A stretch of 60,802 bases of DNA, counting the filler, from Dehalococcoidia bacterium (GTDB lineage: Bacteria; Chloroflexota; Dehalococcoidia; DSTF01; RBG-16-68-14), in NCBI GenBank assembly GCA_040882355.1. It is 6 parts of 6 records of this genome, joined end to end, with 100 filler letters (N's around TTAATTAATTAA, not from the genome) between each part and the next. Parts side by side here need not be neighbours in the genome. Positions count along the whole stretch, not along the records: positions 31,241 to 60,802 come from JBBEBM010000034.1; 5 more parts are not named here. One strand, given 5' to 3'. The notes under the pieces are model-generated. The model was not told the origin of the DNA, ran no database searches, and was given only the letters and a program-made list of their open reading frames with translations. The first letter of the stretch is position 1. Every line of letters starts with the position of its first letter. A program made the position numbers and the translations under genes. Positions 2,922 to 57,606 of the stretch are shown piece by piece.

Positions 2922-4097
2922 CTACGGGCCGCTCGACGGCTGGGGATGGGCGGCGGCGTGGTCCTGGATCGCCTTCACCACGGCCTGCTGGCCGGCGCTG
3001 CCGAGTCGCGCCTTGTTCGCGCGAGTCCACTCGTTCGAGCGGTCGAGCCAGGTCAGGCTGTCCTGGAACGCGGGCATCACGTAGCGCGCGAAGAGCTCGT
3101 AGCTGTGCAGCGTCTTCTCGCGGTCGGCCCATTCGTGCGCCAGGCCCAGGAAGCAGCCGAAGCCGCCCGATAGCTCCTGCACGCGCTTGATGCCGGCGAT
3201 AGCGCTCTCCGGCGTGCCGATGAACATCCCGAACGCGCCGTCCTCGGCCAGCGTGCGGCCCGATTCGACTTCGGTTCGGAAGGGCGCGCCGAGCGTGTTG
3301 ACGAAGTAGTCGTTGTTCCATGCCTTCATGCCGACCATCACGTCCTGAATCGCCTGCTCCTTCGTCTCAGCGAGGTGGAAGGGCGCAACGACGCGCCACC
3401 GGCTGCGGTCGGGCGCCGGTTGCCCGGCCTCATGCGCCGCTGTCTCGCAAAAGCCCCACTGGGTAGGCATCGCCATCAGCCCCTCCTCCGAGTACAGCGC
3501 CACGGAGAGCACACCCACGCCATGCTTGCCCGCGCACGACATGCCCGCGGGGCTGATCGTCGAGGCGACGGCGACGGGCAGCGGGCGCTGGACGGGCTTG
3601 AGCTGGAGTTGCGCCTCGTGCAGATCGAACCAGTCGGTCTCGCAAGTGACCGGCTCGTCGTCGTTGAGGAGGCGCATGATGATGCCGAGCGATTCGTCCA
3701 TCATCTCGCGCTGGCGTGTCGATTCCAATCCGAGGAAGGACGCGTCGGCGGCGAGCGCGCCCGGTCCGACGCCGAGCATCGCCCGGCCGCGGGTTAGGTG
3801 ATCGAGGAGGACAATGCGGTCGGCGACGAGGAACGGGTTGTGGTAGGGCAGGCTGACGACGCCCGTACCGAGGCGGATGCGCTGCGTGCGCTCGCCGGCG
3901 GCGGCGAGGAACACCTCGGGGCTGGCGCTGGTCTCCCAGCCGCCCGAGTGATGCTCGCCGGCCCAGACCTCGTCGAATCCGAGGTCGTCCAGCCAGGAGA
4001 TCAGGTCCAGGTCGCGGCGCAAGGCCAGCGTGGGGTTCTCGTCCTTGCGGTGGAACGGCGCCATGAAGATGCCGAACTGCATACGATAAGGCTGCAT
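2922..4097 (-). CDS. LLM-class flavin-dependent oxidoreductase (LimB-like)
   Basis: FGIFMAPFH, GFDEVWAGEHHS, IRLGTGVVSLPYHNP, LDHLTRGR. Confidence 0.9.
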   Translation of the reverse strand: MQPYRMQFGIFMAPFHRKDENPTLALRRDLDLISWLDDLGFDEVWAGEHHSGGWETSASPEVFLAAAGERTQRIRLGTGVVSLPYHNPFLVADRIVLLDHLTRGRAMLGVGPGALAADASFLGLESTRQREMMDESLGIIMRLLNDDEPVTCETDWFDLHEAQLQLKPVQRPLPVAVASTISPAGMSCAGKHGVGVLSVALYSEEGLMAMPTQWGFCETAAHEAGQPAPDRSRWRVVAPFHLAETKEQAIQDVMVGMKAWNNDYFVNTLGAPFRTEVESGRTLAEDGAFGMFIGTPESAIAGIKRVQELSGGFGCFLGLAHEWADREKTLHSYELFARYVMPAFQDSLTWLDRSNEWTRANKARLGSAGQQAVVKAIQDHAAAHPQPSSGP

Positions 4098-4189
4098 GAG
4101 CGCTCCTCTGCTTGCGGGGCGATGCTGCTGCCCATTGTACTAGCGCGCAGGTCAAATGTGTAGGCGAGCCATTGGCGGGCGCAGCCGGT

Positions 4190-48776: not shown

Positions 48777-49088
48777 ATGGCCGCGAACGGGCGACTGCCG
48801 CTGACCTTGGAGGGTATCGAGAGTGCGCTCGCTCGAACGCGTGCGGGGCACAGGAGAGAGTACTTGGCGTCCCTGCGGAAGCGTGTCGCTGCGTTTGAGG
48901 AACGTTACAGTCTCCCGTCCGACCTGCTACGCGAGGCTCTATCCGCCCACAGGCTCCGGGAGAACCTGGATGTTGTCAAGTGGCTCCATGCTTACGACAG
49001 TCTTGTGAGCCTCGAGCATGAGCGAGGCGAAGCACGGCTGGAACACACTGGAGGACTACCTCCACGTTCTGCAACACGTCGTCGATGA
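48777..49088 (+). CDS. Putative antitoxin (TumA-like)
   Basis: LRKRVAAFEERYSLPS...DVVKW pattern; overlaps the downstream DUF6516-like gene. Confidence 0.55.
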   Translation: MAANGRLPLTLEGIESALARTRAGHRREYLASLRKRVAAFEERYSLPSDLLREALSAHRLRENLDVVKWLHAYDSLVSLEHERGEARLEHTGGLPPRSATRRR

Positions 49089-49452
49089 CGACCCATTCGT
49101 AATCTCCCACTCGCTGTCTATTGATCTTTCCGCGGAAGCCGGTGACATCTCCGGGGACGTACTCTGTCACGGAGATATCATCCTCGACGTGACTAAGCAC
49201 TTCGAGATCCTGGAGTATGCAGACCAGCGATACGCTCGAACAGCCCGGTATTCGTATCACGCGAGATACGAAGGCGGTGATGACATCCTACGCTACGACA
49301 ACGCGCATGCCGACGACACAACCGGCCACAGCACCACTCATCACAAGCATACATTCGATGGCGACAGCGAGATGATCACTGACGTGAGGGAGTTCGACTG
49401 GCCTCACTTGAGCGAAGTGCTTGCTGAGCTTCGTGGAATAGTGTGGCGGTGA
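49018..49452 (+). CDS. DUF6516/TumE-family putative toxin
   Basis: YSYHA...ILRYDNAH...HHKH. Confidence 0.75.
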   Translation: MSEAKHGWNTLEDYLHVLQHVVDDDPFVISHSLSIDLSAEAGDISGDVLCHGDIILDVTKHFEILEYADQRYARTARYSYHARYEGGDDILRYDNAHADDTTGHSTTHHKHTFDGDSEMITDVREFDWPHLSEVLAELRGIVWR

Positions 49453-49993: not shown

Positions 49994-50641
49994 CTAACCC
50001 GCCCGTTGCCGACTGCGGCGTTCCTCGTAGGCTATCGCTGCTTCCACGTCCTTTGGAGTGAGGCGGGGGTAATCTCGAACTATCTTCCTTACGCCGTATC
50101 CTGCCTCGTGAAGGTTCCATACCGCGGAAGTCGGAATCCTCGTGCCAGCCAGGACGGGGGCATTGTGAACTACGTAGCGATTCCTTACGACCCTACCCAG
50201 GTCCCCGTCGCTACGCTCCCTCAGACGGCTGGCTGCCTCTCGCATTTCATGGGCGATTTCTTCCATCGCAATCGGCAGTACTGGCTGACCTAGCGGCCAA
50301 GCGCCCATCCTGGCTCCGGTGCGAGGGTCGTCAAAGTACACGTGCCTGCCGCCTACGTAGAACGTGAGACTCGCCCAGGGACTCTCCCTTCGCTTCTTCA
50401 GCCAAGCACCCACCCGTCGGAGCTCCTGGAGAGGGACCCCGTGCTGGTTTCGAAGGATCGCGATCGTGCGCAGGCCGACTACATCTCGGAAGGAGTAGAC
50501 CCTACCGAAGGCACGGCCGCGATCCCCGTCCGTGTATTGGGGCGCAAAGAAGCTCGTGCGATCCCAATACGCGAGCTGCCGTCGGGACAGCCCCGTTAGC
50601 CGGCAGACATGCTCCGAAGCGAAGGCTACGATTTCGTCCAT
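49994..50641 (-). CDS. MerR-HTH plus DUF433 antitoxin (VapB45-like)
   Basis: VCRLTGLSRRQLAYWD...RVYSFRDVV; PVLAGTRIPT...DYPRLTPKDVEAAIAYE. Confidence 0.85.
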   Translation of the reverse strand: MDEIVAFASEHVCRLTGLSRRQLAYWDRTSFFAPQYTDGDRGRAFGRVYSFRDVVGLRTIAILRNQHGVPLQELRRVGAWLKKRRESPWASLTFYVGGRHVYFDDPRTGARMGAWPLGQPVLPIAMEEIAHEMREAASRLRERSDGDLGRVVRNRYVVHNAPVLAGTRIPTSAVWNLHEAGYGVRKIVRDYPRLTPKDVEAAIAYEERRSRQRAG

Positions 50642-53352: not shown

Positions 53353-53730
53353 GGGATGTTCCTTTCTGGCGAGACGGGGCGTGTAGGGGGCGGGTCTCAG
53401 ACCCGCCCGGTCGGGCATGTGTGGTTCAGGCGCACAGTATAGCGAACGCGTCAGGTAGGGGGGGGGGGNNNNNNNNNNCTCGCGAGCCGCCCCTACGCTC
53501 CGACAGGCCGAAGGCTGTCCCACCGAATGGAACGTCCGCCTCCGATGGAGGCAGGTCGCGGGAGGCCTGAAGGGGCGATTATACCTTTGACACACCTTAG
53601 GCGGAAGCGCCCAATCTCGGCAAGATTCCTCCCGAAATAGTCGCCCCAACCCCTTGTGCTCTCGGAGATCGTGTGGTATCTTAGATCCGTAATGATCTTG
53701 GAGACGCGAGGGAGAAGGGAGGTGAACAGT

Positions 53731-53889
53731 TTGCCCAAAGCGCCAGCGAATGGGGAGCGCGAAATGGTGCACGTCCGGCTGGACGCCAAGCTCGTGCGCG
53801 CCATCGATCACCTGGCCGTTGATTGGCGACTGTACCGCAATGAGGCGATGGAACGACTGCTAAAGGAAGCAATCACCAAGTACGAGTGA
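53731..53889 (+). CDS. Ribbon-helix-helix (CopG/Arc-like) regulator, 52 aa
   Basis: MVHVRLDAKLVRAIDHLA...RNEAMERLLKEAI; GGGAGGTG RBS before TTG; promoter TTGTGC-17-TATCTT upstream. Confidence 0.75.
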   Translation: MPKAPANGEREMVHVRLDAKLVRAIDHLAVDWRLYRNEAMERLLKEAITKYE

Positions 53890-53892
53890 ACG

Positions 53893-53927
53893 CGAAACGG
53901 AGCGGGCATACACCCCGCTCCGTTTCG
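53893..53927 (+). terminator. 14-bp perfect hairpin between the RHH gene and the tRNA-like gene
   Basis: CGAAACGGAGCGGG-CATACAC-CCCGCTCCGTTTCG; no clear U-tract, so it may be a processing or attenuation stem. Confidence 0.45.
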
Positions 53928-53936
53928 GCAACCCGG

Positions 53937-54012
53937 GGGCAGGTGGCGAAGTGGAAACGCAGTGGATTCGCAGCCCACTATCGCAGGGGTTCGATTCCCC
54001 TTCTGCCCTCCA
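53937..54012 (+). tRNA. tRNA-like gene (Cys-like body, loop UUCGCAG, nominal anticodon CGC)
   Basis: Acceptor GGGCAGG/TCTGCCC, U73, encoded CCA, D arm GCG/CGC with GG, perfect T arm AGGGG-TTCGATT-CCCCT; A-C mismatch at the base of the anticodon loop. Confidence 0.8.
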
Positions 54013-54033
54013 GACTAGCTAGGACAGTATACC

Positions 54034-55026
54034 ATGACCGAGCCTAAGACGTTCCTGGAGATACTACAGTGGTCGCCAGCCCAGGCCCGCAAGTACCTAG
54101 AATCAGTGCGCTGGCCGGACGGCCCCGTATGCCCTAACGGGTGCGCCGCTGAGGTCTACCGCTTCGAGGCCAGGACGCGCCGCAAGACGGCGAACGGCGA
54201 GACGAAGGTACAGCCGACTCGCCATCTGCTCAAGTGTTCATCCTGCAAGCGCCAATTCAGCGCGACGGTCGGGATGATCTTCGAGGACTCGAAGGTGCCG
54301 CTCAACAAGTGGCTGGCCGCGATATACCTCATGTGCGCCAGCAAGAAGGGCATGAGCGCCCACCAGCTACACCGTATGCTAGGCGTCACTTACAAGACCG
54401 CGTGGTTCATGTGCCACCGTGTCCGCCACGCCATGAGCGACAAGAACGGCGCTCCCCTCAGCGGGATCATCGAGGCCGATGAAACCTACGTCGGCGGTCG
54501 CCCGCGTGGACACCCGAAGCACCGCTCTGGTCGCTCGCAGCGCGAGATACAGCGCCAGTCCTACAACGCCAAGACGCCGGTGTTCGGCATACTCGAACGG
54601 GGTGGCCGGGTCCGCGCGGTTGCAATGCCAGGGGTCAGCAAGACGAAGATTGAGCAGGCGTTCGCGGATAACGTCGATTTCGATTCGTCCGTCCTGGTCA
54701 CAGACGAAAGCCCGCTCTACGGCGACATAAAGACGCTGCTGCCTCATCGCACCGTGAAGCACTCTGAGGAGTACGTGACCGGCGATGGCATCCACACTCA
54801 AGGGATCGAGAATTTCTGGAGCCTGCTCAAGCGAGGGCTACACGGGACATTCCACCACGTCCGGCCCGCCTACCTCGGGATGTACGCGGACGAATTCGCG
54901 TTCCGCTACAACGCTAGGGAGATGAACGACGGCGAGCGCTTCGCTTCGGCTTTGGAGCAGGCTCAGGGTCGCCTGACTTGGTACGTGGGGCGGGCTTCTC
55001 AGGGGCCGTCTCAGCCAGCTTCTTGA
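54034..55026 (+). CDS. IS1595-family (ISXO2-like) DDE transposase
   Basis: Zn ribbon CPNGC...CSSC, HTH, EADETYVGG, LVTDE, HTQGIENFWSLLKR, YADEFAFRYN. Confidence 0.95.
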   Translation: MTEPKTFLEILQWSPAQARKYLESVRWPDGPVCPNGCAAEVYRFEARTRRKTANGETKVQPTRHLLKCSSCKRQFSATVGMIFEDSKVPLNKWLAAIYLMCASKKGMSAHQLHRMLGVTYKTAWFMCHRVRHAMSDKNGAPLSGIIEADETYVGGRPRGHPKHRSGRSQREIQRQSYNAKTPVFGILERGGRVRAVAMPGVSKTKIEQAFADNVDFDSSVLVTDESPLYGDIKTLLPHRTVKHSEEYVTGDGIHTQGIENFWSLLKRGLHGTFHHVRPAYLGMYADEFAFRYNAREMNDGERFASALEQAQGRLTWYVGRASQGPSQPAS

Positions 55027-55087
55027 TGGCTTCGCGGAACGTCAACGGAGCAAGGCTGACGCTCGTATCCTCGCGCTTCTTGGGCAT
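54914..55087 (-). CDS. Small basic protein antisense to the transposase 3' end (57 aa)
   Basis: MPKKREDTSVSLAPLTFREAIKKLAET; AAGGGG RBS-like sequence; overlaps the transposase by 113 nt. Confidence 0.45.
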   Translation of the reverse strand: MPKKREDTSVSLAPLTFREAIKKLAETAPEKPAPRTKSGDPEPAPKPKRSARRRSSP

Positions 55088-55172
55088 ATGTTTGAAACCC
55101 CTTGTTCGCGCACTCGCGTTGGCGCTTAGGCAGACGCTTGACTCTAGAAGCCAGATCGCCGATAATCTGGGA

Positions 55173-55491
55173 TTGAAACATAGAAACCCCGCGTGGGGTA
55201 GGGACACCCGTCAGCGAGGCTTCCGTTGATGTCAGCAATCACACGGTAGCACGGTAAGCGCGGTTGTGTCAATGACCCCTACCCCACGCGGGCAGGGGTT
55301 CTTTTTCGCCATTCTCCGGCGCGAGCCGGTTGACTGGGCACTTGCTCCAACAGGCGGGGTGGGTGCGTAGAAGGAGCTGGTGGCCCCGATGGGCCGTTCA
55401 ACTCAGGGGGCCACCAGCATTCAGAAAGGAGAGTGGGTCTGCCGTGAGTGTCGTTCACGGGATAGAACCCTGACCCCCTTCGGGGGGTCAG
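55173..55491. ncRNA. Structured non-coding region within the IS
   Basis: 16-bp perfect IR (55188-55203/55277-55292), 12-bp stem (55376-55418), 6-bp stem, 9-bp cUUCGg hairpin (55470-55491), and opposed promoter motifs. Confidence 0.45.
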
Positions 55492-55537
55492 TTTAGCACA
55501 CGCGATCAAGAGCGCAAGCAGCAGAGGAGCACCGCTT

Positions 55538-55822
55538 TTGCCGTTCCTACAAACTGACAAGACCTACCAATTCCGTGGCACCCAGTGGCACGCCGTCCCT
55601 GGCGTGTACGGGATCATGAACGCCAGCAAGCAGATGATCTACATCGGCGAGACGGAAGATTTCCAGCGCCGGATGCAGGAACACCAACAGGACTCGGCGC
55701 ACTGTATGCACCGATACAGCCCGGCCCTCGTGTGGGCAGAGGTCATTCAGGGCGGAGCCGAGCCACGTCGCCAGCGCGAGCGCCAGCTAATCGCTGAATA
55801 CGCTCCGCCGTGCAATGGTTGA
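55538..55822 (+). CDS. Minimal stand-alone GIY-YIG nuclease (94 aa)
   Basis: PGVYGI...MIYIGET...RRMQEH...RERQLI...PPCN; GAGGAG RBS. Confidence 0.85.
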   Translation: MPFLQTDKTYQFRGTQWHAVPGVYGIMNASKQMIYIGETEDFQRRMQEHQQDSAHCMHRYSPALVWAEVIQGGAEPRRQRERQLIAEYAPPCNG

Positions 55823-56039
55823 TCCTGGTCGGGTCATCTAACGACATCGCCCCGATCCCATCGAATCTGCCTGACTCGCGGATGAAAAACAACTCCAGGG
55901 AGTCAACAGAGACGATGGTGTATCGGGGCGATGTGCGCACCTTGACCCGTTGACCTGTCACTTGATCGGTATACTCGATAGGCCGCACGAATCCAGGTGC
56001 GCCCGCCAACTGCAATAACCTTCCTACCATCCACTTCAT
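55743..56039 (-). CDS. Hypothetical protein
   Basis: Open frame convergent with and overlapping the GIY-YIG gene; downstream of an IRR-derived TTGACA-18-TATGCT promoter. Confidence 0.55.
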   Translation of the reverse strand: MKWMVGRLLQLAGAPGFVRPIEYTDQVTGQRVKVRTSPRYTIVSVDSLELFFIRESGRFDGIGAMSLDDPTRINHCTAERIQRLAGARAGDVARLRPE

Positions 56040-56166
56040 CGACGGTAGTGTCGGCCTCCTGCTAAGGTTCAGCATAGGGAAATCCTCCAGGGTGTGTCAA
56101 AGGTATAATCGCCCCTGAAGGCCTCCCCTACACGCTAATCCGACAGGCTGAAGCCTGTCCCACAGA

Positions 56167-56253
56167 TCAGGGAACGACCGCGCTGGCGCTGCCGACGATG
56201 ATCTTCGTGCCGTCGACCTTCTCGACCCTGACCTCGCAAGCTCCGCGGCGGCG
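56167..56253 (-). pseudogene. Diverged duplicate of the 3' end of the MaoC-like gene
   Basis: RRRGACEVRVEKVDGTKIIVGSASAVVP* versus RRRAQCEVWVEKPDGTKIIVGTASAVVP*. Confidence 0.9.
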
Positions 56254-56283: not shown

Positions 56284-56706
56284 GTGACGCTTAGACATCA
56301 ACCCGCATGGATTGAACTGATCTTCCTCGGGGGCAGTGTAGCGGGGTTGATCGGTGCACTGACGGTCCAGGTGTGGCTAGGTGCGGCCGCTAGCGGCCTC
56401 TTGGCTGGATGGTTTCTGCCTCGAGTTTGGGACGGGATTTCCGGCTTGAAACGAGGGTTGCCCTGGGAAGGCCGGGAGTTCGAGTTGACGTTCTTGCCAT
56501 CGCGCGCGCAGCAGTTTGCGATCTGCATGCCGTTCATGCTGGGCTACACGCTTTGGCGCATCGTGGACAGCGGCTGGCTCGGCGCTGCGATCAATGCCCC
56601 GTTCCTTGTGGGCTACGTGATCTGGTTCGTGCATGTGCTTCGCACGGAAGGCTGGTCCGGAAGCGGGCGCGGCGCTCACGGCGAGGAGGCGTCGCGGGAG
56701 GCCTGA
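56284..56706 (+). CDS. Hypothetical membrane protein (about 4 TM)
   Basis: Hydrophobic ORF with lower GC; its stop codon lies within a REP. Confidence 0.65.
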   Translation: MTLRHQPAWIELIFLGGSVAGLIGALTVQVWLGAAASGLLAGWFLPRVWDGISGLKRGLPWEGREFELTFLPSRAQQFAICMPFMLGYTLWRIVDSGWLGAAINAPFLVGYVIWFVHVLRTEGWSGSGRGAHGEEASREA

Positions 56707-56720
56707 AGGCCTCCCCTACA
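56691..56720. repeat. REP copy identical to the reconstructed IS target
   Basis: GTCGCGGGAGGCCTGAAGGCCTCCCCTACA. Confidence 0.9.
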
Positions 56721-56730
56721 ACCGCCGCGG

Positions 56731-57606
56731 TTAGGGGACGACCGCGCTCGCGGTGCCGACGATGATCTTCGTGCCGTCCGGCTTCTCCACCCAGACCTCG
56801 CACTGAGCGCGGCGGCGGGCGCCCTCAGTCGTGTACTCGCGGACGACGCCGCGACAGACGGCGGCGCCGTCGCCGCCCCAGAGGACGTTCACCAGGCGCA
56901 CGTCCATCCGTCCGCCCGCGAACCAGCCTTCGCCGAAGCGACGCGTCATCAGCTCGGAGAGGAAGCAGATCGGCATCATGCCCTGGACGACGATGTCCGG
57001 AAAGCCGAGCTTCTTCGCCTGCTCCGCGTCGTTGTGGTAGCTGACGCCGGGCGAGAACGTCTTGCACATGTCAATCGTCACCGTCTTTTCGAGCGGCTCG
57101 ATCACGTCGACGAAGTCGCCCTCGCCTACGTCGAAGCGACGGTCGGCCGACTTCTCGCGCTGCTTGTCGACGGCGAGCTGGTCCTGCTGCACCTCGAGGA
57201 GGAAGCTCTGGTGGGTGCGGCCGCGGCAGAGCAGGCGACCCTCAGGGCCAAAGACCTGCGCCTCGTTGACGACGTAATCGCGGTTGCGCTTGATGTAACG
57301 TTGGACGATCGTGGCCCGCGTCGTGACGGCGTCGCCGAGCATGATCGGCGCGAGGAGGTCCCACTCCTGTCGGGCGTGCAGGTTGCCGTAGACGTTCGGC
57401 AGGTACCAGCGCCCGAAGCGATAGATCTCGGAGTGGAGGATGAGGGCGGGAGCGACCGGTCCGCCGAACGGCGAGGCGCCGGTGTACCAGTCGTGGTGGT
57501 CGTCGACGCCAGCGGCGTACTCGGCGACGAGCTCAGGCGTGATGTCGTACTCGTGGGCGCCCAGGTCGAGCCCGACCGGTATCTCACCCTTCGCAATGCT
57601 CACCAT
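56731..57606 (-). CDS. Double hot-dog MaoC-like dehydratase
   Basis: SPFGGPVAPA...NLHARQEW; YHNDAEQAKKLGFPDIVVQGMM. Confidence 0.85.
   Translation of the reverse strand: MVSIAKGEIPVGLDLGAHEYDITPELVAEYAAGVDDHHDWYTGASPFGGPVAPALILHSEIYRFGRWYLPNVYGNLHARQEWDLLAPIMLGDAVTTRATIVQRYIKRNRDYVVNEAQVFGPEGRLLCRGRTHQSFLLEVQQDQLAVDKQREKSADRRFDVGEGDFVDVIEPLEKTVTIDMCKTFSPGVSYHNDAEQAKKLGFPDIVVQGMMPICFLSELMTRRFGEGWFAGGRMDVRLVNVLWGGDGAAVCRGVVREYTTEGARRRAQCEVWVEKPDGTKIIVGTASAVVP

Follow-up and report, generated by a model that had tools for sequence, protein, structure and literature searches.

A tRNA-Cys-like gene with a rewritten anticodon loop upstream of the transposase in an IS1595-family element of Dehalococcoidia

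An insertion sequence of the IS1595 family was identified in a 60.8-kb stretch of DNA from a Dehalococcoidia bacterium (the window; all coordinates count along this whole stretch). The element spans 53574-56113 (2540 bp) and contains, in order, a ribbon-helix-helix (RHH) gene, a 14-bp hairpin, a tRNA gene, the transposase gene, a tiny open reading frame (ORF), a conserved non-coding stretch, a GIY-YIG gene and an ORF without a Pfam family. The tRNA gene (53937-54012, + strand) combines a Cys-type body, U73 and an encoded CCA end with the anticodon loop UUCGCAG, and its CCA end lies 21 nt before the transposase start codon at 54034. Here, we describe the element, its tRNA and their relatives, and weigh what the tRNA may do.

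The ends of the element are perfect 23-nt reverse complements of each other, namely the left terminal inverted repeat GGCGATTATACCTTTGACACACC (53574-53596, + strand) and its right partner (56091-56113, - strand), and they are flanked by identical copies of the 8-bp sequence CCTGAAGG at 53566-53573 and 56114-56121. The full-length transposase (54034-55026, + strand; 330 aa) aligns with its relatives over residues 1-330 and matches DDE_Tnp_IS1595 (PF12762, 1.1e-36) and Zn_ribbon_IS1595 (PF12760, 1.4e-08). The hallmarks of the IS1595 family, a transposase with an N-terminal zinc ribbon plus inverted repeats and an 8-bp duplication, are all present. Joined through their 8-bp overlap, the 19-nt left flank (53555-53573) and the 19-nt right flank (56114-56132) reproduce a 30-nt site that is found intact at 56691-56720, about 580 bp from the element, with the palindrome GGGAGGCCTGAAGGCCTCCC as its core. 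Since the flanks rebuild this intact site, the target of the 2540-bp element was the loop of a dispersed palindrome, 8 bp of which were duplicated on insertion, as the family would lead one to expect. The inverted ends, the target duplication and the intact paralogous target site together prove that the tRNA gene is transposon-borne, as the initial annotation had proposed.

The assembly of this region was compared with Logan contigs from sediment DNA runs of one study. One contig of the possible source sample covers 53490-54367 and a contig from a second sample covers 53490-54737, both with zero differences from the window; the contigs of all four sediment runs start at 53490. In the run X3, a single low-depth joint connects 53523 to 56140, with 9 other letters between and a shorter side of 24 letters. 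It does not match the expected empty site and lies within repeats, and is therefore not counted as an excision product. Short runs of N after poly-G, around 53479 and 57723, delimit the 4.2-kb piece in which the element lies. They look like scaffold joins, and the linkage of the element to the neighbouring leuB-type gene is consequently not established.

The tRNA is the only one called by ARAGORN in the window (76 nt, labelled tRNA-Ala(cgc)), and Rfam matches it to RF00005 at 53937-54009 with 49.1 bits (E 1.7e-07 for the whole window), above the gathering score of 29. From its 5' end, it comprises the acceptor strand GGGCAGG, the linker UG, the D arm GCGA-AGUGGAA-ACGC, a single A, the anticodon arm GUGGA-UUCGCAG-CCCAC, the 6-nt variable loop UAUCGC, the T arm AGGGG-UUCGAUU-CCCCU and the acceptor strand UCUGCCC, followed by U73 and CCA. 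The acceptor stem forms seven pairs, including a G.U at 7-66 and G-C at 3-70, and the T arm pairs perfectly. Mismatches occur at A13.A22 in the D arm and at A31.C39 in the anticodon arm, the latter also flagged by Infernal. The canonical nucleotides U8, A14, G18G19, A21, U33, a purine at 37 (A37), the UUCGAUU T loop and CCA are all in place. Positions 34-36 read CGC, the in-register anticodon, and GCA sits at 35-37. The register that would place GCA at 34-36 was rejected, no 5-bp stem supporting it, and the anticodon arm can alternatively pair as AGUGG/CCACU, five perfect base pairs closing a 9-nt loop. Duplexes between the anticodon arm and the rest of the element reached -21.1 kcal/mol at best, against -18.8 +/- 2.3 kcal/mol for shuffled arms on the same stretch, which is not significant. 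Direct reading of the sequence upheld the anatomy given in the initial annotation, from the 7-bp acceptor stem, U73, CCA, perfect T arm and two mismatches to the UUCGCAG loop, the 21-nt gap, the one-base displacement of GCA, the in-register CGC and the absence of G3-U70, and the ARAGORN run that it proposed as a check returned the Ala(cgc) label described above.

The ARAGORN label would fit an ordinary host tRNA-Ala(CGC) lying by chance beside an insertion sequence; isoacceptors with CGC are frequent in G+C-rich bacteria. The anticodon is not among the parts that AlaRS reads. Identity sets for Ala (G3.U70, A73, G4-C69 and G20), Cys, Gly and Thr were taken from the relevant parts of PMC9976931. 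The window tRNA has an NGC anticodon (CGC) at 34-36, as expected for Ala, but carries U73, C4-G69, A20 and G3-C70 in place of the four Ala elements, while the tRNA-Ala of Chloroflexota retains G3.U70. The gene also lies within the inverted repeats, and its relatives are tRNA-Cys. The identity elements rule out an ordinary tRNA-Ala, and we give that reading practically no chance.

Several comparisons point to tRNA-Cys instead. Full-length matches in 400 Dehalococcoidia genomes numbered only three, all tRNA-Cys(GCA) at 72% identity. A search of 401 Chloroflexota genomes (E<=0.1) gave no full-length match, the hits being confined to pieces of the T arm or acceptor and two incomplete tRNA-Cys matches; the longest partial matches were tRNA-Cys, and the 3' half of the window tRNA resembles tRNA-Tyr. 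This set includes one unpublished genome (G349), in which only a 20-nt T-arm match was found and on which no claim rests. Viral contigs contained no exact copy of a 37-nt stretch of the tRNA. Among 61 tRNAs called by ARAGORN in regions fetched from two related genomes, tRNA-Cys was the best-scoring isotype (22, versus 18 for the runner-up). Shared with tRNA-Cys are the D arm GCNA-AGUGGNA-ANGC with A13.A22, G15, the UAUC variable core, U73 and CCA. When the window tRNA was aligned with five tRNA-Cys, 119 of 120 pair cells held standard pairs, the sole exception being 31-39 of the window tRNA, which also has compensatory double changes unique to it at 3-70, 6-67, 12-23 and 28-42. Its anticodon loop, UUCGCAG, differs from the CUGCAAA of all five tRNA-Cys at five of seven positions.

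According to the section of PMC9976931 on cysteine, U73 is sufficient to give minihelices a Cys identity, and the second major determinant is the anticodon. In the Chloroflexota sets, U73 occurs in Cys (3/3), Thr (17/17) and most Gly (4/6) tRNAs, and is thus not unique to Cys. Of the Cys elements, the window tRNA has U73 and G2-C71 and lacks C3-G70 and the in-register anticodon. Of the Gly elements, U73, G1-C72, G3-C70 and C36 are present and C2-G71 and C35 are absent, and the Thr set is matched only in part. Overall, alignment and base pairing show a structurally sound gene of tRNA-Cys descent with a rewritten anticodon loop. The discordant identity elements reported by the initial annotation are therefore real: Cys-like descent and U73 stand against an Ala anticodon in a body that has none of G3.U70, A73 and G20.

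The immediate surroundings of the tRNA were compared with 160 related transposase loci (labelled L001 onwards) drawn from metagenome contigs and species-representative genomes. The closest transposases, at 59-70% identity, lie in the metagenome contigs L081-L085, and those in species-representative genomes reach at most 49%. In four of these contigs (L081, L082, L083 and L085; 59-68% identity), the left end of the element lies about 40 nt before the transposase ATG and carries TTGACA followed, 17-18 nt on, by TAGGCT, TATACT or TACACT. Directly before the left end stands CCTAAAGG in L081, L082 and L083 and CCTGAAGG in L085. Of the close elements located at one or the other sequence, these four and that of the window, the window, L082 and L085 show a direct 8-bp duplication, which hints that CCTRAAGG in palindromic repeats is a preferred target. 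None of the five relatives L081-L085 carries a tRNA upstream of the transposase according to ARAGORN, nor do the four searched with Rfam at E<=0.1 (L081, L083, L084 and L085). Homology between the window and these relatives ends just past the left end and restarts in the 21 nt after CCA (54013-54033, + strand), a spacer with an AGGA ribosome-binding motif that is homologous to the ribosome-binding region of related elements. This break and restart identify the RHH-hairpin-tRNA block (about 53598-54012, 415 bp) as an insertion, the right edge of which is the 3' end of the tRNA. Comparison with the relatives shows that the 415-bp module, placed between the left repeat and the transposase ribosome-binding site, displaces the -10 box that they use for the transposase.

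Besides the tRNA, the module contains a small CopG-type RHH gene (53722-53889, + strand; 55 codons, GTG start) and a perfect 14-bp hairpin without a T run (53893-53927, + strand), which begins 3 nt after the RHH stop and ends 9 nt before the tRNA. The Pfam RHH_1 match barely passes (20.7 bits against a cut-off of 20.5, E 4e-4), and searches of the 160 loci, of viral contigs and of the 401 Chloroflexota genomes gave no relative of the protein. No toxin ORF lies beside the RHH gene, the next feature being the tRNA; a type II toxin-antitoxin pair of RHH and toxin was accordingly rejected. The hairpin did not register as an intrinsic terminator. A TTGACA facing inward stands in each inverted repeat, at 53588-53593 (+ strand) on the left and within a site at 56100-56071 (- strand) on the right. 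The terminal motif of the element itself recurs in 81 of the 160 related loci. Between the left end and the transposase, no sigma-70-like site scoring at least 9/12 was found on the + strand; a TGG-TATCTT motif resembling an extended -10 at about 53674-53682 was read by eye only.

The wider set of related elements was then surveyed for tRNAs. ARAGORN called tRNAs in 18 of the 160 loci, and Rfam added a cut one in L001. Both inverted repeats could be located in 84 loci (81 of the 160 by script, plus L016, L068 and L158), and seven of these 84 hold tRNAs within the delimited element: L003, L016 (two), L048, L068, L082, L086 and L158. The tRNAs of L001, L009, L030 and L128 lie outside the element, and those of L007, L012, L044, L090, L097, L100, L120 and L157 could be assigned to neither group. 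In all seven loci, the inside tRNAs are downstream of the transposase, unlike the upstream tRNA of the window. In L003, L086, L100 and L012, which belong to different phyla, tRNAs of 84-91 nt with a long variable arm and UGG stand beside the transposase, and A73 is present in the three assessed (L003, L086 and L100); the bodies in L003 and L100 are Leu-like. The L158 tRNA (4065-4149, + strand), inside a 3.45-kb IS1595 element, matches the Rfam tRNA-Sec model with 49.6 bits (gathering score 47), has the anticodon GUU and combines a long acceptor stem with a short T stem, and is therefore allo-tRNA-like. The anticodon stem of the L048 tRNA has two non-standard pairs, the L082 tRNA has UGC followed by U37 on an Arg-like body, and that of L016 has ACU on an Arg-like body. 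Body and anticodon mostly disagree (for example Leu-type with UGG, GCC or GUC; Ser-type with GAU or AAG; Arg-type with ACU), the body assignments being crude alignment scores against Chloroflexota tRNAs that serve as leads only. The rest of the cargo varies across the clade and is in many cases nuclease-like, including PIN, NYN, Schlafen/AlbA_2, HNH, GIY-YIG and DUF3800 domains. The tRNA-bearing elements of L048 and L003 are single-copy in their own genomes and so give no evidence of recent spread.

Three points of the initial annotation look different in the light of these comparisons. It named the absence of a tRNA-like sequence before homologous transposases as telling against its inference, and such an absence is observed in part, namely in the closest relatives described above. 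The contrast between conserved processing parts and unconserved decoding parts cannot be argued from homologues, there being none at that position; set against tRNA-Cys, it survives in another form, with stems kept paired by compensation, a loop differing at 5/7 positions and 31-39 as the only broken pair. As for its suggestion that tRNA-like sequences in IS1595 members may already have been noted, related loci do carry tRNAs, but our literature search found no paper giving tRNAs as IS1595 cargo.

Downstream of the tRNA, the element holds four further features. A 57-aa ORF (MPKKREDTSVSLAPLTFREAIKKL...; 54914-55087, - strand) lies in convergent orientation to the transposase gene, the 3' end of which it overlaps, and was assigned to no family. 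By tblastn, it is conserved in L081-L085 (57-73% identity, E 1e-10 to 7e-15) and more weakly in L002 (E 1.4e-04); elsewhere in the clade, its motif SLxPLxFxEAxxxL gave only non-significant matches (E 0.07 or worse). The conserved non-coding stretch at 55138-55310 (+ strand) contains a promoter-like TTGACT-17-GATAAT, a 16-bp long-range hairpin (55188-55203/55277-55292) and a subsequent T run, GGGGTTCTTTTT. It is shared with L085, with a few compensated pairs, has no Rfam match and may be a small RNA. The GIY-YIG gene (55538-55822, + strand; Pfam GIY-YIG, 4.1e-11) encodes a small nuclease-domain protein and has relatives among the cargo of L029, L036 and L085. The ORF without a Pfam family (55743-56075, - strand) lies 3' of the promoter-like TTGACA-18-TATGCT in the right end (56100-56071, - strand), which would drive it.

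In the neighbourhood of the element, an 85-nt copy of the 3' end of a MaoC-type dehydratase gene occurs at 56169-56253 and 56733-56817 (85% identity). The copy lies directly right of the element, beside dispersed palindromes (GGGAGGCCTGAAGGCCTCCC and TCCGACAGGCYGAAGSCTGTCCCAC). About 4 kb upstream, TumE-toxin-like and MerR/DUF433 genes (49018-49452 and 49994-50641) look like genes of the toxin-antitoxin type and stand in a patch of lower G+C content (about 60%).

The reading that we favour, and hold as plausible but tentative, is that the RNA is a co-transcribed, processed, Cys-chargeable, non-standard tRNA and a poor decoder. A promoter of the module itself, probably controlled by the RHH protein, would drive a single transcript running from the RHH gene through the hairpin and tRNA into the transposase. 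RNase P and the 3'-end maturation enzymes would recognise the intact acceptor/T-arm half and excise the tRNA, leaving an RHH message that ends in the protective hairpin and a transposase message that begins with the 21-nt leader. The supply of transposase would thereby come to depend on, and be buffered by, tRNA processing. The released RNA would be a stable tRNA-shaped molecule that CysRS could charge through U73, the Cys-type core and the GCA triplet at 35-37, and it would not be expected to act as a normal decoder. In this it would be like the irregular tRNAs of Mukai et al. 2017 (PMC5389517), for which a displaced triplet served in charging and not in decoding.

Several points weigh against this proposal. 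The tRNA cloverleaf folds at -24.6 or -26.0 kcal/mol, compared with -33.2 kcal/mol for a non-cloverleaf minimum-energy structure; the competing fold is thus 7-9 kcal/mol more stable and takes up the strands of the D and anticodon arms. With Rfam, 60 of 64 tRNA matches in two related genomes outscore the window tRNA, which falls in the lowest tenth. The bacterial Cys pair C3-G70 is replaced by G3-C70, and the in-register anticodon lacks G34, C35 and A36. The promoter scan found no consensus sigma-70-type promoter for the module, and the hairpin 5' of the tRNA might terminate transcription. Furthermore, we infer co-transcription, processing and charging from the sequence. The module is represented by one copy and one sequence, with no sign of selection on the tRNA since entry, and its entry could postdate the landing of the element; the arrangement as it now stands might then never have had to serve in transposition.

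Some of the same observations would suit a hitch-hiking relic, in which a tRNA-Cys and the adjoining RHH gene were captured by recombination, the loop has begun to decay, the RNA has no role, and read-through or a weak promoter accounts for transposase expression. The module is unique, the closest relatives have no tRNA at that place and no set searched yielded a relative of the RHH gene; the broken 31-39 pair, the 6-nt variable loop, the more stable alternative fold and the low Rfam score are also in keeping with decay. Against this, pairing is kept at all 19 remaining stem positions, four of which owe it to compensatory changes seen only in the window tRNA, and U8, A14, G18G19, U33, the purine at 37, the T loop and CCA conform to the canonical pattern. 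Damage is limited to the decoding loop, a pattern that recurs in other IS1595-borne tRNAs, and the perfect ends and duplication make the element look recently mobile. We consider a relic somewhat unlikely.

Whether the RNA could decode bears on a further alternative, a mobile mis-sense tRNA that would receive Cys or be a substrate of ThrRS or GlyRS, for which U73 also serves in this phylum, and would read GCG through CGC, the RHH protein keeping its harmful activity low. A weakened 31-39 pair and U32/G38 are poor for decoding, which weighs against such a role, but U33, A37, the 7-nt loop and the 7/5 acceptor/T geometry are general features of decoders, and mismatches between body and anticodon recur in related elements. 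GCG is likely a very common codon in a genome of 65-70% G+C, and mis-sense activity would thus be costly. The anticodon, a major determinant for CysRS, is wrong in register. In the experiments reported in PMC5389517, some allo-tRNAs insert a 'wrong' amino acid in E. coli, and natural mistranslating tRNAs are described in PMC10404621; the closest precedent in the former, however, is charged but does not decode. We judge this alternative rather unlikely. A bolder version, which we regard as improbable, would make IS1595 elements a cross-phylum vehicle of identity-swapped tRNAs and the window copy an RHH-throttled mistranslation module, charged by CysRS through U73 and the GCA at 35-37, reading GCG as cysteine and released in step with transposase expression. 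Were it true, bursts of transposition and proteome-wide Ala-to-Cys error would coincide.

The nuclease-like cargo of related elements (PIN, NYN, Schlafen/AlbA_2, HNH and GIY-YIG) would also be compatible with a decoy or spare part, that is, a tRNA-Cys look-alike whose altered loop soaks up or resists an anticodon nuclease belonging to a defence or toxin-antitoxin system. Escape from such nucleases is reported for phage tRNAs whose anticodon loops are altered, and the window has the TumE-toxin-like and DUF433/MerR genes 4 kb upstream of the element. The element itself, however, encodes no nuclease known to cut tRNA-Cys, only the small GIY-YIG domain protein, and a spare part would need the correct anticodon. 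A decoy is, in our estimate, decidedly improbable.

Transfer RNAs whose charging identity and anticodon disagree can change the meaning of codons, and mobile copies of them therefore matter. Here, such a tRNA also replaces the transposase promoter, and a cis role in transposase expression is consequently directly testable, as is the connection that it offers of transposase expression with the processing and the non-standard identity of a tRNA. Irregular tRNAs and cargo-bearing IS1595 elements are both known kinds, and comparison with these and other systems delimits what is new.

The window tRNA resembles the chromosomal tRNA-Cys(GCA) of Dehalococcoidia and Chloroflexota (72-75% identity) in the A13.A22 of its D arm, G15, U73, UAUC, the T loop and CCA, but differs in its UUCGCAG loop (invariantly CUGCAAA in tRNA-Cys), in A31.C39 instead of U-A, in one or two extra variable-loop bases and in G3-C70 instead of C3-G70. 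Co-transcripts of a tRNA and an mRNA that are cut by RNase P are known, for example from the E. coli tRNA-tufB operon. As in that operon, the window tRNA directly precedes a same-strand protein gene, with a short spacer between the two, whereas the downstream gene here is a transposase in a mobile element and co-transcription is what we infer. IS1595-family 'transporter IS' with passenger genes were reportedly described by Siguier, Gagnevin and Chandler in 2009. The present element shares with them DDE_Tnp_IS1595 with a zinc ribbon, inverted repeats, the 8-bp duplication and variable cargo; it departs from them in that its cargo includes a tRNA, located upstream of the transposase and replacing the promoter -10. 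The tRNA-ProX of Streptomyces, as described in PMC10404621, similarly joins one amino-acid identity to the anticodon of another, although ProX is chromosomal with a dedicated synthetase paralogue, whereas no synthetase gene lies here and decoding is doubtful. A term search of mistranslation papers, including PMC10404621, returned no mention of transposons in the text it covered.

The closest parallel is with the irregular tRNAs reviewed, in the relevant part, in PMC7609411. The sections of Mukai et al. 2017 (PMC5389517) on such RNAs place allo-tRNA and other irregular tRNA genes in the vicinity of toxin-antitoxin genes, with one that overlaps an ORF related to transposons, and describe His-type RNAs with GUG at 35-37 that were charged by HisRS but did not decode. 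As in those RNAs, body identity and in-register anticodon are at odds in the window tRNA, positions 35-37 hold the cognate triplet (there the GUG of His, here the GCA of Cys) and changes weaken a stem; a small antitoxin-type gene, a mobile element and a soil or sediment bacterium complete the resemblance. The mismatch, the displaced triplet and the linkage to toxin-antitoxin or transposon genes that mark the group are thus present, and its 8/4 or 9/3 geometry is replaced by 7/5, with neither G-1 nor an extra loop. The window tRNA is also Cys-type, a type that section 16 of that paper does not describe, and it is cargo within IS1595 inverted repeats, in line with the transposase. What it adds is a Cys-type case of the cognate triplet at 35-37, so far reported for His-type RNAs, and the clean placement of such a tRNA inside the ends of an intact insertion sequence. 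Together with the seven of 84 delimited elements that carry tRNAs, it points to a recurrent link, found nowhere in the literature searched, between the IS1595 family and non-standard tRNAs across several phyla.

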